Below are positions 3,058 through 26,079 of a DNA stretch of 28,629 nt, piece by piece. Numbering within the stretch: position 1 is the stretch's first letter; each line of letters starts with the position of its first letter. Position numbers and translations under genes: made by a program. Below the pieces are notes generated by a model. That model was not told the DNA's origin. It ran no database searches and saw nothing but the letters and a program-made list of their open reading frames with translations. This DNA is from an uncultured Rickettsiales bacterium (GTDB lineage: Bacteria > Pseudomonadota > Alphaproteobacteria > Rickettsiales > UBA1997). The stretch is from NCBI GenBank assembly GCA_951800555.1, contig CATOJU010000001.1, positions 1-28,629 of the forward strand, given 5' to 3'.

Positions 3058-3368
3058 GTACATTTTTTTTAAAAAAAGTAATTTTTTTGCTTGACAACTT
3101 TTTATTCTTGAAAATCAATAAATATGGTTTTTATTGAAAAATAAAGAAAAATTTGACATAAAATTGTTGATTTTTTCTTTTTTTTGAAGGTTAATTTTGA
3201 CTTAATGTTTTAAAATTTTAACCAAAATTTTTTAAATTTTTATTAAGAAGTTATTATTTTTTTATCAAAAAAAATTTTTAATTTTCGAAATTTCTATTTT
3301 TTAAAAAATATAAAAAATAAAATCTGCCAAATATGCCTGAAAAAATCAACAAATTAGCAATCGTAAAT

Positions 3369-6302
3369 CTAAAAAAGAATCCCTTCAACCTTAGAATTAT
3401 TCAATTCACAATATTTTAAAATATCATCCAATCTTTCATTATTACTTTTTTTCAAATAAAATGTATTATCATCTAAAATAGCATAATGCCAAACAGAGTT
3501 CATTCTATCATCACTAGAAAGTTGATTTATTTTTTTAATCCAATCTAATGCCCCTCTTTGTTTTTGAATAACATTTTCTTGATTGATATCTTTACGAGCT
3601 TTTGTTTCTACTAAATAAATATTATCAGCAATTTTAACTATAAAATCTGGATAATAGGAAGAAAACATTCCATCACTTCTAATATATCTAAGACTTGCGA
3701 AAGTATGATAATTTTCATTAATTTTTAATAATTTTTCAACTTCACTATCCGCATCGGCAAATAACAAAAATTCTCTTTCAAATTCACCTTTATTTGATGG
3801 ATATGCAGTTTTTTTATAAATTGATTTAGTAATATCTAAACAAAAATTTTTTCTCATTTTTAAAGTTTTAACTTCTGAAAAATATTTCTTTATTACTATT
3901 GCATCTTCAACTTCAATATTATTTTGTAAATTATTAATTACTTTGCTAATTTCTTTAATAATATGTTCAATTATATTAATTTTATTTAACATTAAAATTC
4001 TCCAATTATTACCTTCCATTGGATTAAAAGGTTGCCCAAATAATTTATTTCTTATATATTCATCAATTACACCCATTAAATAATTTTGATTTACCTGTAA
4101 AGTTGGAAAGTCTTTAATCGAATGCAAAGATAAATGTCCAATATTACTTGAAATAATCTGTATAATTTTACTTAAAAATTCATTATAACTTCTAGTATCA
4201 AATAAATTAGCATTAACTTTATATTCACCAAATATTGTTTTTACTAACATTTCCTGCGATAAAAATATTTCTCCATCATCTTTATCCAAAAAACCTTTTA
4301 ATTGTTCCAATGTAAATCCATCAAGTTTTTCAAGATTTTTAACACTCAAATTTTCAGTAGTTAAAAGTTCTTCTTTATCTCTAACTATTATAGGAATATA
4401 AAAATCATAATCTTCATAATTTTCCTTTAAATCAACCGTAATAATATCTCCAAGAACATTTTCTCTTTTTATTTCTTCCTTTTCTTCATATATTAAATCA
4501 TCATCAAGATCTTCATAAAATTGAATATAGGCTGGATGTTCTACAATATGCAATATGTCATAGTAACTACTAGGTTCCTGTTTTAAATTAAGCATTTTAT
4601 GACGATCTTCTGCTTTAATTTCAATATACTCTGGTTCTCGCCACATAAGTCTTAACCCTCTACCTATAACTTGCTCTAATAATATAGGAGCCTGTGAAGA
4701 CCTTAATGGAACAATTACACAAATATTATTTACATCAAACCCCTCTCTCAACATAAGAACTGATACAATAACTTTCGGAGATTCCTTTTTATCTATTGCA
4801 AATAAATCTTGTTTAACTTTTGCCCAATCTTCTTGATTAATAGATCCTTTTTTATTAGAATCTATCTGTATAACATCATTTTCATTAACTCCATTTTGTA
4901 TTAAAAATTCCACAACTAGTGGCGACACTTTAGTATCTTCACATACAACTAACATTTTAGGATGTTTATACTGACTAACCTTTGTAAATTCATTTTCCAA
5001 TAATTCTAAACGTGCAAGTCCAGCCTTTAACATCAACCGCTGTCCTTTAGATAATCCAATAACTTCATTCCCATCTCTAATTGCTTTAAAATCTAAATCT
5101 TCATTTGGCAATGATGCAATTTCCTTTCTTTTATCAATAGCTATTACCTTAACTAAACCAGCTTTAATAGCCAAATTTAATCCATAATCAACTATTATAT
5201 GTGGAAAATAATGTTTTATTTTTTTATTACCTGAACCCACTGCATCATAAGGAGTTGCCGAAAAGTCTATTTGAATAAAATTATTTTCTTTATTTTTTGA
5301 TATATAATTTAATGCTTTTTGCCATTCAACTTCTAAAATAGCATCAGCACTTTTATTTTCGTGAATATGATGAGCTTCATCATTAAAAACACAAATATTT
5401 GGCAATGACTGCAAATATTCAAGTTCTCCACCATTTAAAAAATTATTATCTAGACTATCCAAAGAATGTCCAGATGTTGTTCCTGGTTTAATTGGTAAAA
5501 GATCATTTACAATTTTACTCGGATTTTTTAAAGGTGAAACATCGGTATCCAAATCTTTAATACCTTCCTCTTCTCTTTCAATATCATCGGCACCCATTAA
5601 TTTATGCCAATTCAATATAACAATAATAGCATCACTAGTAATTTTTTTACCTATCTCTTCTTTTTTAACAACATTATTTTGTACGAAATTAAAAACAGCA
5701 TCCCTATATTTTTCTGGTATAAAAATATCTTGATTTCGTTTCAAATCAGATGTTTCAAAATTCCTAATTCCATTAATATCCTCCTTTCCCAAAAAAGAAT
5801 CCAACAATCTATCATAAACAATTAAACCAGGTGCTATAAATAAAAAATTTTTAGTAAAAGAACAAAGTTTATTTTCATTATATTTAGCGTTCAAATATTG
5901 CCAAAGAAAAATAGCATTCATACACCAAGTTTTACCTGTTCCTGTAGCCATTTTTACACAATATTTAGGATAAAAAAACTTTTCTTTATTAATACATTTT
6001 AAAAAATTATCATCAACAATTCCATTACCTATAGCCTGATACATTTCAATAACAGATTTAGTTTTCAATATTTCATAGCAATAAATTACATTCAAAATAG
6101 CCTGCTTTTGCCCTTTATGAAAATTAACACTTCTTTCATCACAAAATGTTGGTGAAAACCAAAACCTTAATAAATCTTGTGTTATTGGACTAACTTTTTG
6201 AATAAAACTTCCATTCTCCCACTCTTCATTAACAATAGCAGTAAGCTGTTTTGCAAACTGCAATGGAATATTATTAGTTCCTAAATTAACTGAATTTGAC
6301 AT
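3369..6302 (-). CDS. res: Type III restriction enzyme Res subunit (SF2 helicase plus PD-(D/E)xK nuclease)
   Basis: KMATGTGKT, FNDEAHH, FSATP, VLMLREGFD, EQVIGRGLR, and C-terminal YYPDFIV...LVETK. Starts 1 nt after the mod stop. Confidence 0.9.
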   Translation of the reverse strand: MSNSVNLGTNNIPLQFAKQLTAIVNEEWENGSFIQKVSPITQDLLRFWFSPTFCDERSVNFHKGQKQAILNVIYCYEILKTKSVIEMYQAIGNGIVDDNFLKCINKEKFFYPKYCVKMATGTGKTWCMNAIFLWQYLNAKYNENKLCSFTKNFLFIAPGLIVYDRLLDSFLGKEDINGIRNFETSDLKRNQDIFIPEKYRDAVFNFVQNNVVKKEEIGKKITSDAIIVILNWHKLMGADDIEREEEGIKDLDTDVSPLKNPSKIVNDLLPIKPGTTSGHSLDSLDNNFLNGGELEYLQSLPNICVFNDEAHHIHENKSADAILEVEWQKALNYISKNKENNFIQIDFSATPYDAVGSGNKKIKHYFPHIIVDYGLNLAIKAGLVKVIAIDKRKEIASLPNEDLDFKAIRDGNEVIGLSKGQRLMLKAGLARLELLENEFTKVSQYKHPKMLVVCEDTKVSPLVVEFLIQNGVNENDVIQIDSNKKGSINQEDWAKVKQDLFAIDKKESPKVIVSVLMLREGFDVNNICVIVPLRSSQAPILLEQVIGRGLRLMWREPEYIEIKAEDRHKMLNLKQEPSSYYDILHIVEHPAYIQFYEDLDDDLIYEEKEEIKRENVLGDIITVDLKENYEDYDFYIPIIVRDKEELLTTENLSVKNLEKLDGFTLEQLKGFLDKDDGEIFLSQEMLVKTIFGEYKVNANLFDTRSYNEFLSKIIQIISSNIGHLSLHSIKDFPTLQVNQNYLMGVIDEYIRNKLFGQPFNPMEGNNWRILMLNKINIIEHIIKEISKVINNLQNNIEVEDAIVIKKYFSEVKTLKMRKNFCLDITKSIYKKTAYPSNKGEFEREFLLFADADSEVEKLLKINENYHTFASLRYIRSDGMFSSYYPDFIVKIADNIYLVETKARKDINQENVIQKQRGALDWIKKINQLSSDDRMNSVWHYAILDDNTFYLKKSNNERLDDILKYCELNNSKVEGILF

Positions 6303-6303
6303 A

Positions 6304-8324
6304 TTAAATCTCCTTTACAACATTACTTTCAAAACCAAATACATCAACTGCTTTAACACAAATCTTTCTTTTACAATTGTTGCATCTTGGAATTACAATT
6401 TTAGCGACATTAGATACCCTCAACTCATCATTATTAATAAATGTATTTTCTCTATAATCTTGCCATCTACTTCTAAAAGTTTTTCCATCATAATTTGGAT
6501 CAACACTCCAATATTCAATCAAGGCCAAAGGTTCTTTAGCTATTATTTCTTGCAATACTTGTTTATTTTTATCATCCAAAGGTACTATATCCGGCGATGT
6601 TAATACATAATTATCCAACTCAACTTGCAATTCTTCTTCATTATCAGATATCTGTTTAATAATAGGATCTTTTATTGTCAGATATTGTAAAGAAGAAAAA
6701 CGAATATCTTTATTTTTTACCAATTTTTCATAACCATTATTTTTACTTAACTGCGACAATAAATCTGGTGGTATAACTAAAACTTCTAATTCATTTTTGT
6801 CATATTGCTTTACAAGCTCTGCAATATTAAAAACAAAATTCCAACCCAATACTATAACTTTATTCCAACCACCACAAAAATTATTTTTTAATTCGAATGC
6901 TTTATTTAAAGTTGCTTTACCTGTTGCTTTATTAGGACTATCCACGAAAACTAATGTTCTTCCATTATCCTTTTTTCCTAAATTCTGCGGAGCATTCATT
7001 TCCAAAAATGGTGTAGCACCAAATAAACCTAGGACTACTTGAGATAAATCCCCCACCCTTTTAAATTCTTTATTATTAGCAAAACTTTCTTTTTGATAAT
7101 CACCTATTGATTGGTAAAGAAACGGCTTAGCCTCTTGATCGATCAATCTTTTTCTCATTATCATAGTTGCTGGTTTACCAAGATCTGACATAATCCATTT
7201 TCTTCCTAACGATTCAGCTACTGCTCCAGTAGTGCCAGATCCAGCAAAAAAGTCAGCAACTATGGAATTTTCATCGCTACTTGCTTTTATAATTCTTTCT
7301 AAAAGTTTTTCTGGTTTTTGGGTAGCATAACCTACTACTTCTGGATTTCTTCCGTGTGAAATATTAGAAATATCATTCCATAAAGAACCAACAGCTAATT
7401 TGAATTCATCTAAATAATATTTTTTATATTCTTGCCCAGTAGATGTTATATGAATTAAATTTTGCTGTCGCATTTCTTCAATAGTTTTTTCTATATAACC
7501 GCCTAATGTAACAATTTTATATTTTCTTCCATTATTTTCACTATATCTAAATTCTTTTAATTGTGTATAAGTTAAATCATCACCTTCTACATATTGTTGA
7601 AAATATTGCATATTTTTAGTCTTTGAATAAAGATAAATATTATCTATTTCCCTCGAATATTGTGCTGATGTTTTTTTAGCACCCTTTCCCACTGCATCAC
7701 GAGTCCAAACAATTTCATTCCTAAAATTTTCCCTACCAAATATTTCATCCATCATCACTTTTACATAATGACCTACATGCCAATCCAAGTGCACATAAAT
7801 ACTACCTTTATCACTTAATAATTCCTTCATTAAACACAATCTAGGATACATCATTTTTAAATAACTAATTGTCCCATCCTTCCAAGTATCTGAATAAGCA
7901 AATTGCTCTAGAACCGTAGCATTTAAATTAATGTCAATATTTTTTAAATTATTACCCCCCCCCCACAAATTGCAGGCAGCTTTATTTTAGTACGGTAATC
8001 TGCTTTCGAATCGTATGGTGGATCAATATAAATCAGGTCAATTTTTCCTCTCATTGATGGTAGTCCTGTTGATTCATCTCCTGTTAATAATGCTTGCATA
8101 ACCATTAAATTATCGCCATAACAGAGACGATTTAGCCAATTATGGCTACCTAGATCTTGGCATTCACCAGTAAATAAATTTTGACCTTTTGCAGTTGGTA
8201 ATACATATTCATTTGTCTGTAATAACATTTTATTGTTGCTTTCTAGTCTACCTAGTATTTTGGCAACCTCTTTTTTACCGTCAGATACTACTTCTGGTAA
8301 TAATTCAATTAGAGATTTAGACAT
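6304..8324 (-). CDS. mod: Type III R-M Mod (N6-adenine MTase), split by a frameshift at a G10 tract (candidate phase-OFF allele)
   Basis: 5' part from ATG 8324 (MSKSLIELL...YGDNL..M...[10 protein letters not shown]). 3' part (track ORF 6304-7968) has [33 protein letters not shown] and [12 protein letters not shown]. The two frames meet at C10 (7955-7964 on +). Confidence 0.9.
7955..7964 (-). repeat. G10 homopolymer (simple sequence repeat) inside mod
   Basis: + strand ATTA-CCCCCCCCCC-ACAAAT; the only long G/C run seen in this AT-rich window. Confidence 0.9.
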
Positions 8325-8485
8325 AACATTAACACTTTCCCCTATAATTTTTATATGTAAGGATATTATTTTTATAATTATAAGAATCAAGAAAATTTTT
8401 ATTACTATTTACAAATTTGTTGATGTAATTATTTTATACTTTTTAATTTTTACTATTTTTATAGATTAATTATAAATCTACTTAA

Positions 8486-8959
8486 TCTTTAATTTTCCAT
8501 TATTTATGTCATTCCAGATTAGAATTACTTTGATAATTTATTGTCTAGTAATTCTTAATGTGGAATTGGGTTAATAGTGTCATTCCAAATTAGATTTTCT
8601 TGTAAGCTTGCCTTACTAGAAAATCTTAATGTGGAAAACAAGGCAGGAAAATGATATGCTTGCATAATCATTTTAGCTTGTCGTCCTGCCGCAGTTTGCC
8701 GGAACGAAGTGGAGGAATCTAGTAATATAAAATGTGTTAAATATAGAAAAATTACTAAACTTTTTTGTATTTATTCTTTAATTTTCCATTATTTATGTCA
8801 TTCCAGATTAGAATTACTTGATAATTTATTGTCTAGTAATTCTTAATGTGGAATTGGGTTAATAATGTCATTCCAAATTAGATTTTCTTGTAAGCTTGCC
8901 TTACTAGAAAATCTTAATGTGGAATCTAGTAATATAAAAGGTGTTAAATATAGAAAAAT
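8486..8959 (+). repeat. Tandem direct repeat, two copies (8486-8752 and 8775-8959), the second lacking an 81-bp segment
   Basis: Near-identical TCTTTAATTTTCCATTATTTATGTCATTCCAG...CTTAATGTGGAA (151/150 bp), followed by TCTAGTAATATAAAA(T/G)GTGTTAAATATAGAAAAAT. Copy 1 has the extra 8637-8717. Confidence 0.9.
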
Positions 8960-9237
8960 ATTTTATAGGTTTTTTATATTATAGAATATAAAAAATTATT
9001 AATATTCTTTTTTTTATTAAAGTAATTTATTACTAGATTCCTCCACTTCGTTCCGGCAAACTGCGGCAGGACGACAAGCTAAAATGATTATGCAAGCATA
9101 TCATTTTCCTGCCTTGTTTTCCACATTAAGAATTTCTAAATAAACAAGTTTATTAAGAATTTCTAATCTGGAATGACATAAATAATGGAAAATTAATAAA
9201 ATAAATATACTTACAAGAAAACATAATCTGGAATGAC
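8508..9237. repeat. Cluster of GTCATTCCA...TGGAAT(CTAG) palindromic elements (dRS3/RPE-like)
   Basis: GTCATTCCA starts at 8508, 8579, 8797 and 8867; reverse copies TGGAATGAC end at 9177 and 9237; variant GTCGTCCTG...GGAATCTAG at 8680-8722. The complete units close long hairpins. Confidence 0.7.
8624..9131. repeat. Perfect 104-bp inverted repeat (8624-8727 / 9028-9131)
   Basis: 9028-9131 (TATTACTAGATTCCTCCACTTCG...CCACATTAAGA) is the reverse complement of 8624-8727. Confidence 0.9.
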
Positions 9238-9385
9238 ACAAATAAAGGGAAATCAAAAAAAATAATAAACATAATAAAAATATAAAGATAAAAGGTAGGC
9301 AATCCCCAACTTAATAAAAAAATACTTTAATTTTAAAATCAAACATTTATTATTATTAATTAATAATATATTTACAAAATTATCA

Positions 9386-12300
9386 ATGGCAAAATTTATA
9401 CATTTACGAAATCATACAGAATATTCTTTATGTAGTGGAGCAATAAGAATTAAACAATTAGTAAAAATAGCCAAAGAAAATAAAATCCCCGCTCTTTCCA
9501 TAACAGACAGTAATAATATGTTTGGTGCATTAGAATTTTCTATAATGTGTAGTAGTGCCGGAATACAACCTATAATTGGTTGCGAATTAATAATTGATGC
9601 AAATCCATTATTAACAAATTCTGTAATTCAAAATAAAGATAAATTAGAAGAGAATTTTTGCAAAATTGTAGTTATAGCTAAAACAGATGAAGGGTTTTTA
9701 AATTTAATGTCATTGTTAAGTCAAAGTTATTTAAAAAGACAAGATAAAATAACACCGCATATTGATTTAAAAACCTTTTCTGAAAAAAGCAATGGGATAA
9801 TAGTATTGTCTGGTGGTTCTAGCGGAGTTTTAGGAAAAGCAATATTAAATGAAAAAATCGATAAAATAGATAAAATAATTGAATATTTTCTTAATAGTTT
9901 TGGTGATAATTTTTATATGGAAATACAAAGGCACGGTTGGAATGAAGAAATAAAAACTGAACCATATTTTTTAGAAATAGCACAAAAACATAATATCCCA
10001 TTAGTAGCAACTAATGATTGTTATTTTATAGAAAAAGATATGTTTGAAGCGCAAGATGCTTTAACATGTATAGGGACACAAAGATTCGTAAGTGAAAGTA
10101 ATAGACCAAAATTGACGCCAGAGCATTATTTTAAAACAGAAGATGAAATGATTGATCTTTTTAGGGATATTCCAGAGGCTATTGAAAATACTATAAATAT
10201 AGCAAAAAGAATATCAACTATGGCCTATACTAGAAAACCAACTTTGCCGCATTATGATTTGCCAGAAGGTGTTTCCGAAGCCGATGAAATGGAGAGAATT
10301 GCGAGAGAAGGATTAGAAGATAGATTAAAACAAAAATTTATAGTGGATGATATTAAAACGCCAGAAGAGCAAGAAAAAGTAAGAGAGGAATATACAAAAC
10401 AATTAGAATTTGAATTGGGTGTTATTAAACAAATGGATTTTCCTGGTTATTTTTTAATTGTGGCAGATTTTATAGTTTGGAGTAAAACCCACGGTGTTCC
10501 TATTGGTCCCGGTAGGGGTTCTGGTGCCGGTTCTGTAGTAGCTTGGTCTATGAAAATTACGGATCTTGATCCTATAAAATTTGAATTATTTTTCGAAAGA
10601 TTTTTAAATCCTGAACGTGTGTCAATGCCAGATTTCGATGTGGATTTTTGTCAAAGAGGTAGGGCAAGAAGTATTGAATACGTGCAAAATAAATATGGGA
10701 AAGATATGGTAGCGCAGATTGTAACTTTTGGAAAATTACAATCAAAAGCAGTTATTAGAGATGTTGGAAGAGTATTGGGAATGGGTTATAGTGATGTTGA
10801 TAAAATAAGTAAAGTAATACCTTTTGATTCAAATTTAGAAGAAGCATTGGCAATGGATGAAGATTTGAGAAGAAATAGGCAAGAAGATGGCGAAATTGAT
10901 AAATTATTTGATATAGCTATAAAACTTGAAGGATTAAATAGACATTCATCTATGCATGCGGCTGGTATAGTAATAGGTGATAAACCTTTAGAACAGATTT
11001 GCCCTTTATATTTTGATGATTCTGCCGAAATGCCTGTAGTACAGTATGATAAACATTGGTGTGAAGAAGTTGGACTTGTAAAATTCGACTTTTTAGGATT
11101 AAAAACACTTACAGTTATTAAGGATGCTTTAGATTTTATAAAGGCAATAAAAAATATTGATATAGATATTGATAATATAAGACTTGATGATAAAGAAACT
11201 TTTGATTTAATGAAAGATGCCGATACTTTGGCAGTATTTCAAATTGAATCAAGTGGTATGAAAAGTATGTTAAAGCAGATAAAACCAGATAATATTGAAG
11301 ATATTATAGCTTTAATTTCTTTATATCGTCCTGGTCCTATGGACAGTATTCCTACATATATTAAAAGAAAACATAGGCGTGAACCAATAGAATATATGCA
11401 TCCAAAAATGGAGCCAATTTTAAAAAATACCTATGGAATTATAATATATCAAGAGCAAGTAATGAATATTGCTAAATCTCTTGCTGGTTATAGTTTAGGT
11501 GGTGCTGATTTATTAAGAAGGGCTATGGGTAAAAAAATTCCCGAAATAATGGCGCAACAAAGAGGTGTTTTTGTAGAAGGTTGTAAAAATTTTAGTAATA
11601 TAGATGAAAAAAAAGGAAATGAAATATTTGATTTATTAGCAAAATTCGCAGAATATGGGTTTAATAAAGCCCACGCAGCAGCCTATAGTTTTATAAGTTA
11701 TCAAACAGCGTATTTAAAAGCACATTTTCCAGTGGAATTTATGACGGCAACTTTAAATATGGAATCTAAAGATACTGATAAAATAAATTATTATTTGCAG
11801 GATATAAAAAAACATAAAATTACTATACTTCCACCAGATATTAATAAATCCGACCCCTATTTTAAAGTAGAATTAATAGATATTGAAGGAAAAAGAAATA
11901 AACCCGATATTTACTATTATGAAAATAAAGAACTTGCCATTAGATATGGTTTAGGTATAATAAAAGGAGTTGGAATTGATTTAACTGAAAATATTAAAGA
12001 AGAAATTAATAAAAATGGAGAATTTAAAACTATTTTTGATTTTTGTGGAAGAGTTGGAACTAAAATTGTTAATAAAAAAACAATAGAATCTTTGGCGAAA
12101 TCTGGAGCTTTTGATTCTATACATAAAAACAGAAAACAAATTCACGATTCTTGCGAAATATTAAGTTCCTATGCAAGATCAAAAGAAGAAGAAAGAAATA
12201 GTATACAAATTAGTTTATTCGGTGATTTGATTGATAGCAATACAAGTGCGTTACCGAAATTAGTTAATACAGATGATTGGATAGGCTATGATAAATATCA

Positions 12301-13027
12301 AAAAGAATTTGAAGCTTTTGGTTTTTATTTAAAAAATCACCCACTAGATACTATAAAAGATGAATTAATTGCAAAAGGAATTACATTCTTTAATGAAATT
12401 GAAGAAACAATAGAAAATAATAGTATAATAAAAATGGCTGGGGTTATAATATCAACATCAATAAAATCAAATAATAAAGGCAGATATGCATATATTTCTC
12501 TTTCGGACCCTACTGGATTAGCAGAAGTATCATTATTTAATGGAGATTTGATCACAAAACATAAAGATTGGTTAGATGATAAAGAACATCATCAACTTGT
12601 TTTTGAATGCCAAATAAGAAAAGATGAATCAACTATGAGAATAAACGCTAGAGATTTTTGGCTTTTAGATGATTATTTAAAAAATACTACAGAAGGAGTA
12701 GAAAAGGTTAGAGTAATAAAAAAACGAACTCCTGAAGATTTTAAAAATTATAAGAAAAAAAAAGAAGAAGTAAAAACTGAAATTGTTACTAAAGAATATA
12801 ATCTTTTTAGTGAAGTAAAAATTCATATAGAAAATGATAAATGTTTAAAAGATTTAAGTATTATATTTGAAAAAGCACATTTCCCAGAAAAAGAAAAACA
12901 TACAAAAGTAGAATTTGTAACGGCAGATAGCTTAATTCAACTGCCAGATGAATATTGCATAACAGAAGTAGAATTGAATAGAATAAAGGGAACTTTCGGA
13001 ATTGGAAAAGTTGAAGGAAAGAATTAA
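9386..13027 (+). CDS. dnaE: DNA polymerase III alpha subunit
   Basis: PHP domain HLRNHTEYSL...ITD, GPGRGSGAGS, ERFLNPERVSMPDFDVDF, KFDFLGLKTLT, YGFNKAHAAAY. Confidence 0.98.
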   Translation: MAKFIHLRNHTEYSLCSGAIRIKQLVKIAKENKIPALSITDSNNMFGALEFSIMCSSAGIQPIIGCELIIDANPLLTNSVIQNKDKLEENFCKIVVIAKTDEGFLNLMSLLSQSYLKRQDKITPHIDLKTFSEKSNGIIVLSGGSSGVLGKAILNEKIDKIDKIIEYFLNSFGDNFYMEIQRHGWNEEIKTEPYFLEIAQKHNIPLVATNDCYFIEKDMFEAQDALTCIGTQRFVSESNRPKLTPEHYFKTEDEMIDLFRDIPEAIENTINIAKRISTMAYTRKPTLPHYDLPEGVSEADEMERIAREGLEDRLKQKFIVDDIKTPEEQEKVREEYTKQLEFELGVIKQMDFPGYFLIVADFIVWSKTHGVPIGPGRGSGAGSVVAWSMKITDLDPIKFELFFERFLNPERVSMPDFDVDFCQRGRARSIEYVQNKYGKDMVAQIVTFGKLQSKAVIRDVGRVLGMGYSDVDKISKVIPFDSNLEEALAMDEDLRRNRQEDGEIDKLFDIAIKLEGLNRHSSMHAAGIVIGDKPLEQICPLYFDDSAEMPVVQYDKHWCEEVGLVKFDFLGLKTLTVIKDALDFIKAIKNIDIDIDNIRLDDKETFDLMKDADTLAVFQIESSGMKSMLKQIKPDNIEDIIALISLYRPGPMDSIPTYIKRKHRREPIEYMHPKMEPILKNTYGIIIYQEQVMNIAKSLAGYSLGGADLLRRAMGKKIPEIMAQQRGVFVEGCKNFSNIDEKKGNEIFDLLAKFAEYGFNKAHAAAYSFISYQTAYLKAHFPVEFMTATLNMESKDTDKINYYLQDIKKHKITILPPDINKSDPYFKVELIDIEGKRNKPDIYYYENKELAIRYGLGIIKGVGIDLTENIKEEINKNGEFKTIFDFCGRVGTKIVNKKTIESLAKSGAFDSIHKNRKQIHDSCEILSSYARSKEEERNSIQISLFGDLIDSNTSALPKLVNTDDWIGYDKYQKEFEAFGFYLKNHPLDTIKDELIAKGITFFNEIEETIENNSIIKMAGVIISTSIKSNNKGRYAYISLSDPTGLAEVSLFNGDLITKHKDWLDDKEHHQLVFECQIRKDESTMRINARDFWLLDDYLKNTTEGVEKVRVIKKRTPEDFKNYKKKKEEVKTEIVTKEYNLFSEVKIHIENDKCLKDLSIIFEKAHFPEKEKHTKVEFVTADSLIQLPDEYCITEVELNRIKGTFGIGKVEGKN

Positions 13028-14835: not shown

Positions 14836-15054
14836 TTATTTTCTATCTATAATATTCTGATACACTTGACTTGCACTATCTATACCTGATTTAGTAGTTA
14901 AAGCTATTAATAGAGTTAATACTCCATTATTTATATCTATGTTCTTAAATATACAAATAAAGATTATTATCCAAGTTAAAATAGTATTAATTAGTATAAA
15001 AACTATTCTATTAGATATGTTTCCATCTTTGTCTTTTAAAAAGGTATTATTCAT
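14836..15054 (-). CDS. Holin-like small membrane protein
   Basis: 72 aa with two hydrophobic segments, N-terminal LKDKDGNISNR and charged C-terminus; strong RBS AAGGAG; located at the end of the late operon. Confidence 0.55.
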   Translation of the reverse strand: MNNTFLKDKDGNISNRIVFILINTILTWIIIFICIFKNIDINNGVLTLLIALTTKSGIDSASQVYQNIIDRK

Positions 15055-15078
15055 ATTTTACTCCTTGTTTTAATGTGC

Positions 15079-15107
15079 TTGACTTTTTAATTAAATTGTT
15101 ATATAAT
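15079..15107 (+). promoter_or_regulatory. sigma70 promoter for ncRNA-1
   Basis: TTGACT (15079-84), 17 nt spacer, TATAAT (15102-07). Confidence 0.8.
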
Positions 15108-15113
15108 GTATTT

Positions 15114-15212
15114 AACAAATACGAGTTAAGAGAGGAACCCCTAGCTGGGAGTTAGTGTCTGTCTCTAGTAATGGTAAATTAGTAACCTAACCTTTTACCA
15201 ACTTGTATTTTT
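15114..15212 (+). ncRNA. Putative structured small RNA 1, convergent with nuclease gene 15195-15650
   Basis: Follows the promoter. Closing stem AAATACGAGTT (15117-27) / AACTTGTATTT (15200-10) with one G-U pair, then a T run; internal hairpins; no ORF. Confidence 0.65.
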
Positions 15213-15650
15213 CTTATAATCATAATCATAGTAAGCGGTTAATAAAAAATTAAATCTTCCATTCTCTAAAATTCTAAAACCTATAATAGCAGTTTTTCTT
15301 TTATGGGATATAGTAAATTTCTTATTATCCATATCTGCTATAATTTCCCCATTCTCTATAACTTCCACTAGAGAATCAAACAACTTACCTAAAGGTTGTT
15401 TTAGCTCTTTCCTTCTTTTAATAATATGTTGTAAACCTTTTTTATCATCTCCCCATACCAAAGCTATATTACCTATTTCTTTTCTAAAGAAAGCATCTTT
15501 TATATATCCTCTTCTTTCTTCCATAAGTTTATCTATGGCATCTCTACCTTTATAGCCTACAAATTCTTCTCCTAAAAAGCTTTTTAATTCTTCTTCACTA
15601 TTGTTTTTATCTTCTCCTTTTATTTCTATGGTTATTTTTATTTCTTTCAT
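15195..15650 (-). CDS. PBECR1-like (barnase/EndoU/colicin/RelE-like) putative ribonuclease with N-terminal leader
   Basis: GEEFVGYKGRDAI..L...G....AF...IGNIALVWGD...GLQHIIKRR and terminal strand FLLTAY match my recollection of PBECR1 domains of phage polyvalent/MuF proteins. Confidence 0.7.
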   Translation of the reverse strand: MKEIKITIEIKGEDKNNSEEELKSFLGEEFVGYKGRDAIDKLMEERRGYIKDAFFRKEIGNIALVWGDDKKGLQHIIKRRKELKQPLGKLFDSLVEVIENGEIIADMDNKKFTISHKRKTAIIGFRILENGRFNFLLTAYYDYDYKKNTSW

Positions 15651-15710
15651 AATTTATTACCTTTTTAAATTTATTAATAATTTGCATATTTAACATATAA
15701 ATTCAGTTAC

Positions 15711-15739
15711 TTGACTTTTTAATTAAATTAATATACATT
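15711..15739 (+). promoter_or_regulatory. sigma70 promoter for ncRNA-2
   Basis: TTGACT (15711-16), 17 nt spacer, TACATT (15734-39); 15710-15729 is identical to 15078-15097. Confidence 0.75.
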
Positions 15740-15745
15740 ATAACT

Positions 15746-15860
15746 AATAGTTAGGTTGAACTGCAGAAAATCGGTCCCGACTGCCGTTTGGTTTCTAACC
15801 ATACGATGGAGGGATACCCTTAAATGGGATTGACCGTCCTCCCAATCTAACTATTTTTTT
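15746..15860 (+). ncRNA. Putative structured small RNA 2 (closing stem plus three hairpins), convergent with nuclease gene 15859-16347
   Basis: Closing stem AATAGTTAGGTTG (15746-58) / CAATCTAACTATT (15843-55) with one G-U pair, ending in T7; GC-rich island with three internal hairpins. Confidence 0.7.
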
Positions 15861-16347
15861 ATTCTTTATAGTTTTTATCATCTCTTTTCCTTGTAAGCTT
15901 TAATGTTCTCCCTGTCATTTTATGTATATGAACTATTTCATAATTTTCATTATTTTCTACCATATCTATTAATACAACAGAATATCTGTCAGTCTTTATT
16001 TTTCCAATAAAATTCATATATTTTGGATTATGACCAGAAAAAACATACTCTGCTTCATATAAGGCTATTGAGATTAAAAAATTATAATCTTCTTCTTTAA
16101 CGTCCGGATGTACTTCTTTATTCCTATCTATTATACTCTTCTTAAGTAAAACAGGTTTATCCTTCTTATTCAACTCTCTCAAATCTTCCTTATTTAATCT
16201 TGGTAGATAATTATCTCTAGTAAAATCTATATTTACCATAGATTGTTTTTCTCTTATTTCCTCTAGTGTTGTAAATTCACTGGATTCTTCTTTATTATCA
16301 TTTTCTCCTTCTATTTCTATTTTCACTGTTATAATTTCCTTTGTCAT
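15859..16347 (-). CDS. PBECR2/3-like putative nuclease with N-terminal leader
   Basis: LP.L....L..L....KPVLLKKSIIDRNKEVHPDV..EDY...YSVVLIDM...YEIVHIHKM resembles PBECR-family domains (recalled). Confidence 0.6.
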   Translation of the reverse strand: MTKEIITVKIEIEGENDNKEESSEFTTLEEIREKQSMVNIDFTRDNYLPRLNKEDLRELNKKDKPVLLKKSIIDRNKEVHPDVKEEDYNFLISIALYEAEYVFSGHNPKYMNFIGKIKTDRYSVVLIDMVENNENYEIVHIHKMTGRTLKLTRKRDDKNYKE

Positions 16348-16370
16348 TTGTAATCCTTTTATTTGTTGAT

Positions 16371-16399
16371 ATTATACACTAATTTTTCCCATTTAGCAA
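16371..16399 (-). promoter_or_regulatory. sigma70 promoter for the nuclease cassette
   Basis: Minus strand TTGCTA (16399-94), 17 nt spacer, TATAAT (16376-71) preceded by TG; RBS AAGGA before the ATG at 16347. Confidence 0.7.
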
Positions 16400-16411
16400 G
16401 TGAAATAACCA

Positions 16412-16810
16412 CTAAAATGGAGACTTTTCAAACTCATCCTCATCTATTTTTATCTTGTTTAGTTGCTCTTCTGTTTCTGCTTCATTTATTTGCTTGATTA
16501 AATAATCATAGATATATACATTACTACTATGGAACTTTTTAAATTCTTCTTTTTCTTCTTCTGTACCAAAGATAGCTATATTATTTTGTTTATACTGTGG
16601 ATAGTTATTATAGAAATAATTTTCTACATTTATCTTTAAACTATTTAACTTTTCTTTTTTTATATCATCTAGATTAAGTTTTTGTTTAATACCTTTTAAT
16701 TCATTATCAGATTTAACAATAATCAAATTGTTCTTATTACAATAGCTGGCAAACTTTGCTTATTGTAATTGAGTATATGGTTTTTTTAAAATATTTTTGT
16801 TTTCTGTCAT
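16412..16810 (-). pseudogene. Tail fibre assembly/chaperone-like gene with in-frame TAA
   Basis: ATG 16810 with RBS AAGGT reads MTENKNILKKPYTQLQ*AKFASYCNKNNLIIVKSD...; TAA at 16762-16760 is in frame with track ORF 16412-16726. Confidence 0.7.
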
Positions 16811-16820
16811 TTTATACCTT

Positions 16821-18167
16821 TTATTTATTTAATAAATTCAGAATCAGTATAACCTTTGCAATCCACATAAATTGTCCCGAATTTTGTCCCTGACCTCTGA
16901 ATCTTAACTGCATACTTATACTAGATTTTGTTTTGGTTTGATAACATATATCAATTACACCAGCAGAAGAATTTAACATGCTCGGAGTAGCAATTAGTGT
17001 GTAAGTTGTATCTTTAAATGGAATTAAGAAGGTAATATTATTAACATTACTAGTCCCACCTTGCTCTACCCAACCATCACTATATTTTCTATACCAATTA
17101 CCATTACCATCTATAAAAGTATCTTCAATATAAATTCTATTAGATAAATTATTTATATCATTAACTATATTATCAATATCTACTTCAACATCTGTTTTAG
17201 TTGTTGTTCCTACTACAATATAAACTAAATACTTAATACCTCTTGGAACTACCTAGTTTGATTTTCCATAAATAGAATTTGAAGAACTTGCATTACTAGT
17301 TGTTCCAATACCTCTTGTATCACCATAATCAGCACCTGCAAAAATATTATCTAAACTATGTGTTTTATCATAAGTACCTTGTAAATTAGCAGTATGATAA
17401 TGGTCTGGAAGTCCTATTTCATTACTAACTCCATTATTATTTATATCTGTTGTTGTTTCTATCCATCCATTTATAGTAAGTAATCTAACATATTCATTTT
17501 TAACAAATACATATTTTCCACAGTTACCATACAATGATATAGAATTATTATATTCTTCTTCAGTGCAAAAAATATTATCTCTTATGGTTTCATTATCATA
17601 TAACTTTTCCATAAAGCTATAAAAATCTTTATATATACCATTATAAACAATTTTACTTCCATCAGCCAAATGTAAATTAGCATCAGTTAAAGGTACTGTA
17701 CTTGTTATTAAAGTACCAGCAGGTGCACCACTTCCTCCAAATTGTAATATTCTCCAATTATTGCCATCAGTATCATTTATTGGGTTGTTTCCTTTATTAT
17801 TATCTGTATATGAATAATATAAATTAGGTTCATTTTTACTATTAATAACCATACAAATATTGCCTTTAAAATATGTTGTGTTTTCACTCCATTCTGCAAT
17901 ACCTTTTTGTAATAAATAAGCTAAATTATAACTATTTACATAAGAAACAGCATTAAAATCTTCCATTAGTGGAGAATTTCCATTTAAAACAGCACTACTC
18001 CAGCCATTATTCCAATTTATACCATTATTATTTATTCCCTGTATTATATTAGGGTCATTAGAAAACTCCATTGTTCCTGTTTGTGCTTTGCTTCCAAAAA
18101 CTGCGACATTATTATTAATATTTTCACTAGAAAATATTAATTGTTCTTTTCTTTCTAAATCTGTCAT
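16821..18167 (-). pseudogene. Tail fibre gene with in-frame TAG at 17255-17253
   Basis: N-terminal VFGS...W..GW...SPLMEDFN...AYLLQKGIAEW. After the TAG the same frame continues open for about 140 codons (VVPRGIKYLVYIVVG...NWYRKYSDGWVEQGG...ITFLIPF...WIAK), a typical fibre C-terminal domain. Confidence 0.8.
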
Positions 18168-18169
18168 TT

Positions 18170-18799
18170 TTATATAATATTATTGTTATTTAAAAAAGTT
18201 GCTTTTATTAAGTTATTATTAGTACTAAATCCAACAATAAAATCTTGAGGTTCAATATTATTTTTTCTAAAACCAAATATTTTATCTGTTGTTATTCTAA
18301 CAATATAATTAACATATACCCCAGCAGGAGCTGGTAATATATCCCTATTTTTCAATATAATTTTAATTATATTGTCTTGTTCGCTTTCTCCGAAAATAAT
18401 ATAACTTATTGTCATATCTGTATTATTTACAAATACTAACTTATTATTTAGAAAGTTATATATACCATCAGAAATTGATTTTATACTATTTACTGAATAA
18501 TTATTTATACCTTTTAATTTTATTAATGTTCTATAAGTTTCATCATCAAGTTTATTAGGTGCTGGGGTATTTTCAAACTCAATACCTTCGTAAATTCTAC
18601 TTATTCCCACTATAGCTCCTATTATATCAAGCTGGGTACCTATAGCTGTATTTATATTAAAATTATCAGTAAAATTATTAATAATATTATTATATAACAA
18701 AACATTATTTAAAATTAATGTTTTTATAGTTGCTTTTGCTTTAGGTTTGTTCCAATATTGCTTAATTAATAAATCTGTATAATATTTTATTAAATCCAT
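18170..18799 (-). CDS. Baseplate wedge protein (DUF2612-like)
   Basis: YYTDLLIKQY..KPKA.ATI, AIGTQLDIIGAIVG, LDDETYRTLIK, LPAPAGV. Confidence 0.8.
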   Translation of the reverse strand: MDLIKYYTDLLIKQYWNKPKAKATIKTLILNNVLLYNNIINNFTDNFNINTAIGTQLDIIGAIVGISRIYEGIEFENTPAPNKLDDETYRTLIKLKGINNYSVNSIKSISDGIYNFLNNKLVFVNNTDMTISYIIFGESEQDNIIKIILKNRDILPAPAGVYVNYIVRITTDKIFGFRKNNIEPQDFIVGFSTNNNLIKATFLNNNNII

Positions 18800-18800
18800 T

Positions 18801-20279
18801 TTAATTTTGTGTAATTGTTATATTTGCTTTTTCAAGTTGAAATATGTAATTGTAATTTGTATTTTGTACTATATCTTGCCAAGTAGTACCATCTAAACTT
18901 AATTTTATATCAGTATAAATTAAATCGTTTTGTATCCCTCTTAAAATACAACCCACTTGATTTATATCAACAGTCGTGTATAATGTAAGACTTAAAGAAT
19001 TTATTAATTGTTCTTTTAAAAAATCTAAATCAACAACAGTATCAGATTTCTTTTTAGTTATATTAAATTTAATATATAAATCTTCATACGAAGGTCTGTC
19101 CCATTTAATCTCTGTTGCTACCCCTTGTTTTGTGTAAACTGTATAAGATGTCTCTCCTCTCATACCACAACCTGCATTTATAGTTGAATATATAGCTTTT
19201 GCAATATCTTCATTACTTCCACCTTCAACTATTAACCAAACAGAATGAGCTGGTGTTCCTGCTGTACTTGTTATATTTGTATTGTTATTTTCACCAGTTG
19301 CTATAATAACACCTTTAACATTTAATAAAGCTGATATAATATTATCAAAAGCACCAGTTCCACCATTTCCATTTGTATTTAAAAATCTGTTTCTTAATGA
19401 TAAATCGCTTTCTTCATCAGTTCCTTCTGTTGCAACTTGTGTATTATTTATAACACTAACAACCCCAACTTGTGGAGTATTTATATTTGTTATTGTTTCT
19501 AACCCAACTTGCAAAACTCCAATGTCTTTTGCTCTAAATTGTACTGTTTTCGTTCCACTTTCTGTAAATTCTACACTATTTATTAAATAAAATTCATTAC
19601 CAGCATTATCACTAACAGTAAAAACATCGCTTGCTTCTAGTTCATTATAATTATCATCTAGACCTTTTAAAATTAATGGTGTATTTACTTGTATTTCTAT
19701 AGGAACAATGGTATAACTTCCACCATTTCTTACAATACTATGATATGTTGCTATATTATCAAGTGCTTGTCCTACTGCTAAATTAGGGTTCAAACTATTA
19801 TATAAATTTATAATAGTTTCATTTATATCTGTTTGATTTTGTGAAAAAATATTAATTAATTGACTATCGGGTGTATTACTATTTAAATTTATATCTTCTC
19901 CATATATTTCTTTAAATTTATTTTCATAATATTCTATTATTTCATTTATATTAAAATTATTGTTATAAATAGTATTTAAAACAATATTAATATTAATTTT
20001 TCTTTCTGGAGTTATAGAATAATTTATATCTTTAATCTCAATTACTCCATCAATATTTAAAATTAAACTCACTAATTGATTAATTAATTTTTTATCACTA
20101 CTAAAACTTCCTAGAATATTATACCAATCAATACCTCTATCTAAATCATAAAAGCAATTATTTTTCCAACATTTAATATTAGTTAAAATGTCAAGTTCCA
20201 TTGCTTTCTGATTAATAGCATAATCTTGCTTTCCATTTCCAAAAGTCCAATCCCAATTTTCGTCTAAATTTCTAATCAT
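18801..20279 (-). CDS. Fusion of small baseplate wedge (gp25/gp46-like) protein and baseplate J-like protein
   Basis: Likely start ATG 20279, overlapping the TK-like stop (ATGA). First ~112 aa RNLDENWDWTFG.G..DY...W..NCFYDLDRGIDW; remainder IYGEDINL.SNTPDSQ...A.GQALD...G.DEESD..LR.RF...HSVWLIVEGG. Confidence 0.8.
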   Translation of the reverse strand: MIRNLDENWDWTFGNGKQDYAINQKAMELDILTNIKCWKNNCFYDLDRGIDWYNILGSFSSDKKLINQLVSLILNIDGVIEIKDINYSITPERKININIVLNTIYNNNFNINEIIEYYENKFKEIYGEDINLNSNTPDSQLINIFSQNQTDINETIINLYNSLNPNLAVGQALDNIATYHSIVRNGGSYTIVPIEIQVNTPLILKGLDDNYNELEASDVFTVSDNAGNEFYLINSVEFTESGTKTVQFRAKDIGVLQVGLETITNINTPQVGVVSVINNTQVATEGTDEESDLSLRNRFLNTNGNGGTGAFDNIISALLNVKGVIIATGENNNTNITSTAGTPAHSVWLIVEGGSNEDIAKAIYSTINAGCGMRGETSYTVYTKQGVATEIKWDRPSYEDLYIKFNITKKKSDTVVDLDFLKEQLINSLSLTLYTTVDINQVGCILRGIQNDLIYTDIKLSLDGTTWQDIVQNTNYNYIFQLEKANITITQN

Positions 20280-20830
20280 AATAATATATTCATTGTTTTT
20301 ATAGGTTCCCAATGTTCTTTGCAACAAGCAACATATTTGTTATAAATACCTTCAATATAATCTGTTGCTCTTTTATCTCTTATTAATTTTGTTCTAGTTG
20401 ATGGTTTGCCGCAGATTTCACATTTGCCTTTAATATGTATTTTTTTATCTGCTATATTTTTAAATTCTTCAAATTGCTTAAATTTTCTATTATCTGCCAT
20501 TCTATCTAAACAAGCAATATAAATTTGTTTTTTTTGTTTTTTTAACTCTAAACAATCTTTTTTTAATTGTTCTATTTTTTTTATATTTACAAGATTTAAT
20601 TCATCAAAAATAATTATATCTGCATTACTTTTTAATTTATCTTTATATATTTTAGTTTTTATTGTTTGTGTGTATTTTCTACTTTTTAAAAATCCATTAT
20701 CTCTTGTATTCTCTTCTGGTTCAAATAAATCTATTGTTTTATTTGCTTCTTTTAAATTATTATATAAATCAATTAAATAAGCAGATTTTCCTGATTTCAT
20801 TGCCCCATATATTAAAGTTATATTTTCCAT
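20276..20830 (-). CDS. Divergent thymidine-kinase-like protein
   Basis: YGAMKSGKS P-loop, IIIFDE Walker B, KCEICG and YVACCKEHW Zn-site of the type II TK fold. Symbol withheld because the family is divergent. Confidence 0.7.
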   Translation of the reverse strand: MENITLIYGAMKSGKSAYLIDLYNNLKEANKTIDLFEPEENTRDNGFLKSRKYTQTIKTKIYKDKLKSNADIIIFDELNLVNIKKIEQLKKDCLELKKQKKQIYIACLDRMADNRKFKQFEEFKNIADKKIHIKGKCEICGKPSTRTKLIRDKRATDYIEGIYNKYVACCKEHWEPIKTMNILL

Positions 20831-20831
20831 T

Positions 20832-21263
20832 TTAATTAATTTCTGTTATTAATCCATTAGTAATTGTCAGTGTTTTTCCACTTGCTCCTTGTCCTGTATC
20901 AACAAAAGTACCAGAAATACCAGCTTGTCCTCCTGTACTATATGTTGATGCTTCAATATTTCCTAAAATATTTATATTTTCTGATATATCAAGATTACCA
21001 TTTATTTTTGAATTATAATTTAAACAAATAGCAGTATTATCATATTGAATAGCATTAACTAAACTATTTAGTCCACAAATAACTATTCCATCACTTAAAT
21101 CGTGTTTTCTATCACTATAAGGTAATTGAGCTTCGCCTGTTTCAAAATAAACATTTAAATCATAATCATTAAATAAAAATCCATTACTAAAATCTTTTAA
21201 TCCTTTATCTTCTACTTTAAAGCCAAGTAAAGCACACATTCTAGTAATTATTTGTTCTCCCAT
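20832..21263 (-). pseudogene. Chimera of tape-measure N-terminus and baseplate spike (gp138/gpV-like) C-terminus
   Basis: Starts MGEQIITRMCALLGFKVEDKGLKDF (TMP-like start, right after the chaperone genes), then FLFND.D...FETG...P...R.HDLSDGIVICG and GISGTF....TITNGLIT (spike-like). Confidence 0.7.
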
Positions 21264-21264
21264 T

Positions 21265-21505
21265 CTACTTCCTAATTTTATTATATTCTTCAGCTTCTAA
21301 TTGATTTAAAAAAATAATGTAGTTATAAAAATCTAATACTTCATTAATAGGTGTATTCATAACTTCGGCATAACTACCGAAATTATTTTTTATAACTACA
21401 AACACAAATAAATTTAAAGGGTCGTCTATAGTATAGTTTTTATAATTATCTTGATTGTTGCAAGTACAATTTTTTATTTTGTACTTGCTTTTATTGTAAA
21501 AAAAA
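21265..21505 (-). CDS. -1 frameshift extension (GT-like) of the tail assembly chaperone
   Basis: The -1 frame is open from the T8 slippery run (A8 at 21498-21505 on +) to TAG 21267-21265: YNKSKYKIKNCTC...FGSYAEVMNTPINEVLDFYNY...EYNKIRK. Confidence 0.7.
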
Positions 21506-21851
21506 CCCTCAAATTCTCCAACATTATATTATAGAATATTTTAAAAAAATATTTTCTATTATCTATATCATCAAATAAATTTTTTGTAATTCTTTCATTA
21601 TTAAAAATACAATTATTAGATAATTTAAAAAATATGTTTTCAAGTTCTTCATCACCTATACAATCACAGATTAAACCTAAAAGCCCAGAAAAATCTTGTA
21701 AATCAAAACCATCTTTTAAAGAGTTTTCATTTAATTCAAAACCTTTTAAATTATTTTTTGTTTTTCTACTAATAAATCTTATTAAAGTTAATACATCACC
21801 AGTACTTCCATAATTAAACTTTAATATTTTATCATCAATTTTTATTTCCAT
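21474..21851 (-). CDS. Tail assembly chaperone (G-like)
   Basis: Located between tube and tape measure; ends ENLRVFF with a slippery GTTTTTTTT. Confidence 0.7.
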   Translation of the reverse strand: MEIKIDDKILKFNYGSTGDVLTLIRFISRKTKNNLKGFELNENSLKDGFDLQDFSGLLGLICDCIGDEELENIFFKLSNNCIFNNERITKNLFDDIDNRKYFFKIFYNIMLENLRVFFTIKASTK

Positions 21852-21862
21852 AATTAACCTTT

Positions 21863-22318
21863 TTAGTTAATAGAAACATCACAATTACTAAAAGATAAAT
21901 TCCAAACACTAACAATTGCCTCAACATTTCCGACAGTACTTTCAACAGTGCCAGCATTTCTTACCACAACACCACCAGATAAATCAAATACTTTTTTAGT
22001 CAAATTACCTTTTCCGTCCCCTGTTCTTTTTGTAAAAGTTCCAGTTATTAAAGAAAAACTTGTCGGGTCGTTGCTATATTGAGATAATTTATTTATAAGA
22101 TATTTGTCTGTGTCTCCATTTAAAATAACCCTTAAAGTAATATTTGCAATTTTACCCTGTTCGTTTTTAGTAAATAGAGAATTGCCATTTTTGCCTCTTG
22201 TAATAATTGCCACATCGTTTGGAAATTCAAGAGTTATACAATCGTTGTCTGCTCCATCAAGTATTAATTCACCATCAAGAATTAAACTATCATTACCTGC
22301 TAAACTTTCTATTGCCAT
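21863..22318 (-). CDS. Tail tube protein
   Basis: Follows the sheath; beta-rich, G.NGN.LF..N..G...T.R; size typical for DUF3383-sheath phages. Confidence 0.75.
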   Translation of the reverse strand: MAIESLAGNDSLILDGELILDGADNDCITLEFPNDVAIITRGKNGNSLFTKNEQGKIANITLRVILNGDTDKYLINKLSQYSNDPTSFSLITGTFTKRTGDGKGNLTKKVFDLSGGVVVRNAGTVESTVGNVEAIVSVWNLSFSNCDVSIN

Positions 22319-22327
22319 TTATTCCCC

Positions 22328-23815
22328 CTAATTATTTACATTAATAATAATATTTGAGCTATTAATTGCTCCAGCTAATTTTACAGCAATTTGACATAAA
22401 GGTGCTTTTCTGGCCTCTCTATCAGCTTGAGATTGTTGAGCTATAGGAGAAAAATAAATATAATAACCAAAATTAGATATATTATCTAAAAACAACTCTT
22501 GATTACCAAAAGTATAAGGTAAAGTCCAGCTACCAGCTCCTATTAATCCATTATTTACACCTTGATTTAAAACTTTTGCATAAGTATTGTAAAGCATACT
22601 TACACCTTGCTCTGTTTGTGCTATTTTAGTCGGTACATTTCTTAAAGCAGAAAAACCATTTTCTTCAAGTTGTAATTTTAACCATATCAAACCTACAACA
22701 GTATCAAACCATTCATTTTTACCAGAGCAGAAAACAGCCCCAACACCACCAACAGAAACGTAAACATCACAACCTAATTCTTGAGCTTGTAATAATTCAG
22801 TTTCTCCAATAGTATTATCTGGCAATACACCAGTTAATTCTTTTGCATGTAAATTTTTAACTGTGTTGCTTCCTTGATAATTTACAGCCATATAAGAACT
22901 TGTATAAGCTCCAGCATAAACTAATGAGTCAGTTTCTCCATTATAATATAAACATCTACAATGTGTTAAAGCTGATTGTTGTATTTTATAAAATACATTA
23001 GCTGTTTCTGCTTTTAAGTAATTTTCACCACCTTTTGCCACAACTAAAACAGAATTTAAAGATTGAATAAGATTTGCACCTGCTTCAATTTCTTCATCCG
23101 AAATATCCCAAGTTGCTAAACAACAACCATAATAAGAAATCTTTTGGGTTCTTAAAATTATGTCTTGTAATCTTTCTTCACCTGTGTATTCAACTTTTCC
23201 TATTACTTCAACAGCATTAGAGGTATTTAATAGATTTACATCACTTAAACTTGTTCCCTCTGTTCCAGCACTTAAAACAATTTTACTATCCACACCTGTT
23301 GTTTTGCTTGTAAAAATAATATTGTTGTTTTCATCAGCAGAAATTACAACATCACTTATTTGAGCTTGTAATATATCTACAACATCCGAAAGACTTTTTA
23401 CAGTACTAAAGTCTAAACCATTATAACTTTTTGCTTCTGCCCCATCTACAGCAATATTTAAACTACCATCAGTTATATTTTTAAAGTTTTCGTAAATAAT
23501 TGATTTGCAAGTTGTATATCCAGCAGTTGCCGGTTCTGTTATATTTGCTAAAGCAGGAAATACCATAACATAACCATCACCAGCTAAAATATTCGGCGAT
23601 TGACTAAAGATTGAATTAACAACTTTAAAAGTCTTACTATCAATACCAAAATCATTGCCACAAGCTTCAGATGCTTTATAAACAACATAATTATTTATAG
23701 GAACATTAGCAGGTTCTTTTGTAAAAACACCTATAACACAAACATTTCTTGCTGTTATACTTGTCGGTGCTGTTGATAAACTTACATTTATGTAATTATT
23801 AATATTTATTGCCAT
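22328..23815 (-). CDS. Tail sheath protein (DUF3383-like)
   Basis: IN.YINVSLS, FSQSPN...G.GY, W....LE, QT.QG, Q.QADREARKAP..Q.A.KLAGAI....I. Confidence 0.85.
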   Translation of the reverse strand: MAININNYINVSLSTAPTSITARNVCVIGVFTKEPANVPINNYVVYKASEACGNDFGIDSKTFKVVNSIFSQSPNILAGDGYVMVFPALANITEPATAGYTTCKSIIYENFKNITDGSLNIAVDGAEAKSYNGLDFSTVKSLSDVVDILQAQISDVVISADENNNIIFTSKTTGVDSKIVLSAGTEGTSLSDVNLLNTSNAVEVIGKVEYTGEERLQDIILRTQKISYYGCCLATWDISDEEIEAGANLIQSLNSVLVVAKGGENYLKAETANVFYKIQQSALTHCRCLYYNGETDSLVYAGAYTSSYMAVNYQGSNTVKNLHAKELTGVLPDNTIGETELLQAQELGCDVYVSVGGVGAVFCSGKNEWFDTVVGLIWLKLQLEENGFSALRNVPTKIAQTEQGVSMLYNTYAKVLNQGVNNGLIGAGSWTLPYTFGNQELFLDNISNFGYYIYFSPIAQQSQADREARKAPLCQIAVKLAGAINSSNIIINVNN

Positions 23816-23821
23816 AATTAT

Positions 23822-25213: not shown

Positions 25214-25214
25214 A

Positions 25215-25793: not shown

Positions 25794-25795
25794 CT

Positions 25796-26029
25796 TTATT
25801 TATGTTTATTTTTATTTTTATTTTTAATAATAGTAGAAGTTATTTTTTCTTTTTTTTCTTCACTATTTTTTATTTCTTTTTTTTCTTCTTCAACAAATAA
25901 AGGTTTTATTTCATTAAAACATTTTACTTTATTATATTCTTCATTAGTTAAAGTAAAATATGTATTAGGTTCAATTCTTTTATCCCCTATTATATACACT
26001 CTTTTACTTTGATTTATAAAAGTTTTCAT
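25796..26029 (-). CDS. Small hypothetical phage protein
   Basis: 77-aa ORF between capsid and adaptor, tightly spaced in the operon. Confidence 0.55.
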   Translation of the reverse strand: MKTFINQSKRVYIIGDKRIEPNTYFTLTNEEYNKVKCFNEIKPLFVEEEKKEIKNSEEKKEKITSTIIKNKNKNKHK

Positions 26030-26052
26030 AATTCTTCCTATTTTATTAAAAT

Positions 26053-26072: not shown

Positions 26073-26079
26073 CATTTAA

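Follow-up and report, generated by a model that had tools for sequence, protein, structure and literature searches.

A G10 run in a type III mod gene of an uncultured mouse-gut bacterium: a candidate hypermutable ON/OFF frameshift site

The mod gene of a type III restriction-modification operon in the window, that is, the whole stretch of 28,629 nucleotides analysed here, is divided between two reading frames at a run of ten G residues. The explanation that we favour, with some reserve, is that this gene is phase variable, that the run is a slippage-prone ON/OFF frameshift site, and that the assembled allele is now in the OFF state. We infer both that this run switches and that the Mod made in the ON state is active; control of a regulon through methylation is speculative. 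The term “phasevarion” is used below as a hypothesis only, and the defensible description is a “hypermutable ON/OFF frameshift site in type III mod”. The features concerned are collected in Table 1.

Table 1. Features of the mod-res region and its borders, with positions in the window.
Feature	Position	Strand	Remarks
dnaA	1521-2987	-	One side of the mod-res operon
res, 977 aa, intact	3369-6302	-	ResIII, Helicase_C; GTGKT, DEAH, QVIGRGLR, C-terminal PD...ETK (YPDF...VETK)
mod, 3' part	6304-7953	-	Target-recognition region, motif I (FFAGSGTT), C-terminal domain; TAA 6306-6304
32-nt lineage-specific insertion GCAATTTGT-G10-TAATAATTTAAAA	7942-7973	-	Loop after motif IV; codon-level comparison with L005
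mod, 5' part	7944-8324	-	ATG 8324 to premature TAA 7946-7944; contains motif IV DPPY
G10 homopolymer (C10 on the + strand)	7955-7964	-	Frameshift site; one of only two G/C runs of at least 8 in the genome
MITE-like repeat cluster between mod and dnaE	8479-9274	.	One edge of the species-specific mod-res segment
dnaE	9386-13027		Other side of the mod-res operon

On the minus strand, the sequence at the break reads GCA ATT TGT, G10 (7964-7955), T AAT AAT TTA. The ATG from which mod starts aligns with the N-termini of all homologues, and the run occupies codon 121-124 of the gene. Codon reading demonstrates that a change in run length moves mod in or out of frame. With G9 a TAA follows at once and with G10 a stop is reached three codons on, so that both OFF frames end within 0-3 codons, while the two frames are fused by G11 (673 aa) or G8 (672 aa), G14 also being in frame. 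The frames and their rescue by G11 or G8 are therefore as originally predicted, and the tract indeed lies just after DPPY, in a segment that has no counterpart in the homologues. When both parts are joined into a Mod of 673 aa with X placed at the break, the product matches Pfam N6_N4_Mtase (1.3e-41). Downstream of the break, an ORF of 554 aa stretches from 7968 to 6304; a role of its own for this ORF was considered and rejected, as motif IV is missing from it. A poly-G artefact of two-colour Illumina chemistry was also discarded, since the flanks on either side hold the same gene in register and the run is the same in separate assemblies.

The type III class is indicated by the order of motifs in Mod, where motif IV (DPPY) is located N-terminal to motif I (FFAGSGTT) with a region between them that varies among the aligned homologues, and by the SF2 helicase motifs and C-terminal PD-(D/E)xK nuclease motif of Res. 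Along its whole length (residues 1-977), the latter is collinear with the res that follows mod in more than 30 homologous operons (best identity 62%), and it had no sequence match in the PDB. The ATG of res (6302) begins 1 nt past the mod stop. It had been proposed that res is intact and translationally coupled to mod; intactness is confirmed, while coupling is only possible, since a Shine-Dalgarno sequence of its own (AAGGAG, 6315-6310) makes it dispensable. The Mod family is spread over many phyla, including DPANN archaea, and the best homologues, at 61-70% identity, are found in MAGs of many phyla. In one homologous locus, from a Micrarchaeota MAG (L063), mod is frameshifted at (AG)9 near codon 60 (L063:3182-3199), and the frame would be restored by loss of one AG unit. 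The DPANN archaea may thus have an SSR switch of their own, for which this gene is a candidate, and its frameshift indicates that SSR-interrupted mod genes recur in this family.

The G10 run sits inside the 32-nt insertion, which was placed at 7973-7942 through codon-level comparison with the same-family homologue L005 and would, in frame, encode AICGGGGNNLK. Exactly 24 residues separate DPP[YF] from EQFAY in 118/118 protein homologues and in 70/73 genome loci, and none of the approximately 190 homologues of standard spacing carries the insertion. In the Mod of the window, the spacing would be 35 (G8) or 36 (G11) residues, which bears out the original prediction in that homologues are shorter here. 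Extra residues are present at the same loop in three other sequences: one in L005, 12 in frame in L081 (a Nitrosomonadales MAG), Gly-rich and accompanied by a GC palindrome, and 42 in frame in L021 (a Desulfovibrionales MAG), with C7, C8, G6, and G7 runs. Longer segments in three other lineages indicate that the loop tolerates additional residues. The Mod of EcoP15I moreover aligns without gaps across the lengthened segment, and from this alignment together with the tolerance of the loop, the in-frame Mod allele is likely functional. An AlphaFold2 model of the joined Mod had a mean pLDDT of 58, with residues 105-148 below 50, and was excluded from all arguments on fold and loop. Regarding the origin of such segments, the insertions in L021 (L021:2338-2514) and L081 (L081:3343-3429) both lie directly after “LP” and consist of GC-rich palindromic DNA, a pattern that resembles a hot spot at which small palindromic elements insert within an ORF.

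The genome to which the window belongs is a MAG from mouse gut metagenomes, with 229 contigs, 1.19 Mb, 23.1% GC, and 93% completeness. LpxC is present, and DnaE shares 74% identity with a same-family genome, 49% with a same-order genome, 46% with a Holosporaceae MAG, 42% with another alphaproteobacterial MAG, and 40% with a Gastranaerophilales MAG. An AT-rich, alphaproteobacterium-like host, as had been suggested, is weakly indicated by LpxC and by the DnaE identity of 46% to Holosporaceae versus 40% to Gastranaerophilales; an alphaproteobacterial host is plausible on these sequences. In the 93%-complete genome, no MutS (PF00488, MutS_V) or MutL (PF01119) domain was found, and no tmRNA was found (ARAGORN, RF01849).

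Runs of G or C are scarce in this genome. There are 832 of length 4, 148 of length 5, 26 of length 6, and three of length 7, a drop of approximately 6-fold per added base in a log-linear fit. Over the whole genome, runs of 8 and 9 are absent, whereas there is one run of 10 and one of 11. For runs of at least 10, the log-linear fit predicts approximately 0.02 in the 1.19-Mb genome, versus two observed. The G10 run is far from chance, and one of the two outliers is located inside a type III mod of 2 kb, a gene of the class best known for SSR-driven switching. Other G/C-containing simple repeats of note were not found in the genome. The second outlier (G000:C94:3193-3203) is located in a decayed partial copy of rplS, an intact rplS being present on C8. 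It is G11 in the genome of the window and G9 in GCA_948483415.1 and ERZ17912901 (the ENA assembly of SRR10593853), with 0 mismatches in the flanks over 1.7 kb between the G11 and G9 assemblies. Different lengths between identical flanks indicate that poly-G runs change length within the strain; a miscall of G9 or G11 is less likely, as the two G9 calls agree. The same run also has no obvious switching function, which tempers the argument from rarity: its position in a functionless fragment implies that long G runs are possible in this genome without selection for switching. The rplS copy itself (G000:C94:3125-3298, equal to L018:1501-1674) lacks its 5' end and has lost 179 nt internally, between short direct repeats. 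In it, TA and G11 stand in place of the native GAAGGAGTTG; the G9 versions are located at L099:4300-4308 and L100:3818-3826.

Run length at mod was compared across assemblies. Exact matches to the 554-aa product and to Res both occur on the same five contig records, namely GCA_949021165.1, GCA_948483415.1, ENA ERZ17912901, Logan SRR10593853, and the genome of the window itself, and the mod run is G10 in all five. The locus sequences match the window at 100% identity over 5.7-7.4 kb, so the five records represent one clonal strain in few samples. Neither an in-frame allele nor an alternative-start product above 70% identity was present among 5.8 billion proteins. The variation in tract length that had been anticipated did not appear in these contigs of a single strain or, as an ON allele, in that protein collection; neither did the uniform G11 or G8 by which an assembly error had been expected to reveal itself, as the assembled contigs read G10. 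Exact-protein look-ups with Res, Map, and the 46-aa neighbour yielded no further independent contigs. Two pattern scans of JGI metagenome contigs, one with both flanks and a variable gap and one with the left flank alone, gave no match, implying that the organism is apparently absent from that collection.

Logan contigs, as distinct from raw reads, of four runs from four studies were placed on the region. In the probable source run, a contig spans the mod run as G10 at a word depth of 33. In the three other runs (X3, X6, and X10; depth 6-9), the contigs break at the mod run: those upstream of the break in the sense of the gene, at higher coordinates, align from 7955 in X6 and X10 and from 7960 in X3, the X6 contig having two more unaligned letters past 7955, and those on the opposite side end at 7945, 7946, and 7879. 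A de Bruijn graph ends a contig at the edge of a run where its length is polymorphic. Low coverage together with homopolymer read errors can equally be the cause of such breaks. Opposite-side ends 9 nt short of the run are not predicted by pure length polymorphism, and low coverage with read errors fits these ends better.

The operon lies between dnaA and dnaE and is accessory. A same-genus genome (G001) shares dnaA and dnaE at 86-90% DNA identity and is without mod-res, while the same-family genomes G020, G032, and G030 have intact mod homologues with no repeat run; it is this distribution that marks the operon as accessory. When window 3317-9317 is set against L105 and L102 of G001, an ABC-ATPase gene and an EngB-like GTPase gene come after dnaA there, and a different contig holds dnaE, beside the HU-like gene and in inverted orientation. 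The difference in gene order indicates that the origin-proximal region has been rearranged between the two species. The MITE-like repeats are densely clustered and have a GC-rich core, with direct and inverted copies of 50-125 nt; they occur also at G000:C94:1592-2264, and the family has more than 150 matches in G001. No Rfam family was found in the window, the MITE-like repeats included, and promoter and terminator scans gave nothing above shuffled expectation. Further along the window (15000-28600), the remnant of a decaying prophage retains genes for the tail and capsid of a myophage (DUF3383 sheath-like, baseplate J, DUF2612, and major capsid), together with genes for the nuclease domains PBECR1 and LPD13 and a thymidine-kinase-like gene inside the baseplate module.

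The proposed switch would operate as follows. A type III restriction-modification operon, probably acquired horizontally, is placed between dnaA and dnaE, and its mod would have received the G10 run within a short insertion specific to its lineage, in a surface-variable loop that directly follows catalytic motif IV. During replication, slipped-strand mispairing may alter the length of the run, in a genome without detectable mismatch repair. A run of 8, 11, or 14 would then give full-length Mod, the ON state, and a run of 9 or 10 would stop translation within the few codons described above, the OFF state. In type III enzymes, Res depends on Mod for DNA recognition. Switching of mod would be expected to toggle methylation and restriction together, and the sampled population would be mostly OFF (G10).

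Recent non-adaptive pseudogenisation is the rival that deserves the most serious attention, although we consider it unlikely. A shrinking genome would here be losing an acquired operon: slippage by one base at a G run that was already there would have silenced mod, decay would follow, and any reversion would be mechanical instead of selected. The OFF allele is the only one ever seen, the operon is missing in the same-genus genome, and the host genome is reduced with its other poly-G run in a dead gene fragment, all of which agree with such a loss. The state of the genes, however, speaks against it. Mod was compared with 18 mutually distant homologues at 130 positions invariant in the others, in a leave-one-out design, and it retains 129/130 of the family-invariant residues, across both halves. 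The one changed position compares with 0-8 in intact genes under the same test. The 5 kb of mod and res contain a single frameshift and no second lesion, which is not the picture of a decayed pseudogene. In a genome of 23% GC, long open frames persist only if they are under selection or recent. The conserved residues together with the intact Res imply that mod is not an old pseudogene, and from the lack of decay at this base composition the frameshift is either recent or regularly reverted. Furthermore, a G10 run is unlikely to last in a genome that otherwise has no G/C runs longer than 7.

Two further rivals were considered. A homopolymer miscall, with a true run of G11 (or G8) and an intact mod, is improbable. 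Short-read assemblies may misjudge long homopolymers (PMC5909438), the three low-coverage runs were unassembled across the mod run, and the sister run is G11 or G9 depending on the assembly. Against this, G10 was obtained in the five contig records from at least three assembly pipelines, and the sequencing run that was assembled twice gave G9 for the sister run both times, so that the G9/G11 difference lies between samples and not between assemblers. More improbable still is production of some full-length Mod with no change in DNA, through RNA-polymerase slippage on G10 or -1 ribosomal frameshifting. Passage from the upstream to the downstream frame does require a -1 shift, and transcriptional slippage rescues frameshifted genes at poly-A runs in reduced endosymbiont genomes, which counts for this possibility; yet neither a canonical slippery heptamer nor a structure downstream of the run was found, and such rescue is documented mainly at A/T runs. 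The phase-variable reading is retained as the preferred one.

Comparison with known systems places the present gene, as a probable new case, among switches of a familiar kind. Helicobacter and Campylobacter are not known to have MutS/MutL-type mismatch repair, and they resemble the present host in this respect as well as in being host-associated and AT-rich. In silico, a phase-variable type III mod is recognised by a mononucleotide run of at least 9 in the mod ORF (Atack et al. 2018, PMC5909438), a length that the G10 run exceeds. In modH, modJ, and modL of Helicobacter pylori and modU of Campylobacter upsaliensis, a G run of at least 9 in the type III mod ORF sets the frame (PMC5909438), as it does here. 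In contrast to those genes, the run here lies in a lineage-specific insertion past motif IV, the Mod belongs to a different subfamily, switching is predicted from sequence, and the host, probably an alphaproteobacterium, is an uncultured bacterium of the mouse gut with a reduced genome. The modA genes of Haemophilus influenzae and Neisseria (PMC1976455) likewise carry an SSR in the mod ORF with res immediately downstream, and in them the SSR switches expression ON and OFF, but their phasevarions employ tetranucleotide repeats and have a demonstrated regulon, whereas here the repeat is G10 and the regulon hypothetical. In the dedicated phasevarions of Haemophilus, res is often inactivated (PMC1976455), while it is intact here; with an intact res, switching of restriction or defence is no less likely a role than gene regulation. 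Among solved structures, the best sequence match of Mod is EcoP15I Mod (PDB 4ZCF, 4zcf_A; E 7e-16), followed by Mbo45V and a Helicobacter pylori Mod. EcoP15I, the archetype of type III enzymes, shares with the present system the placement of motif IV before motif I and the operon order mod-res, but it is not known to be phase variable and its similarity to this Mod is distant.

A bolder extension of the phase-variable reading can be formulated, which we regard as decidedly doubtful. In it, the G10 run of mod would be the sole protein-coding contingency locus of a reduced, mismatch-repair-less gut symbiont that otherwise purges G/C runs, would have originated from a dedicated small insertion at an insertion-tolerant loop hit independently in several phyla, and would drive, in an uncultured alphaproteobacterial commensal, either a true phasevarion or a form of bet-hedging in which defence against the uptake of genes varies.

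The mechanism proposed for mod is a known one, and its current understanding is unchanged by this case. What is added to a well-documented mechanism is a host group, namely a reduced-genome and probably alphaproteobacterial gut commensal, and an unusual position of the run, in an inserted loop after motif IV. If the run switches, the only recognisable type III restriction barrier of this bacterium would flip on and off, and perhaps its methylome too, which would affect the uptake of foreign DNA, resistance to phage, and the reading of MAG-based methylation binning.
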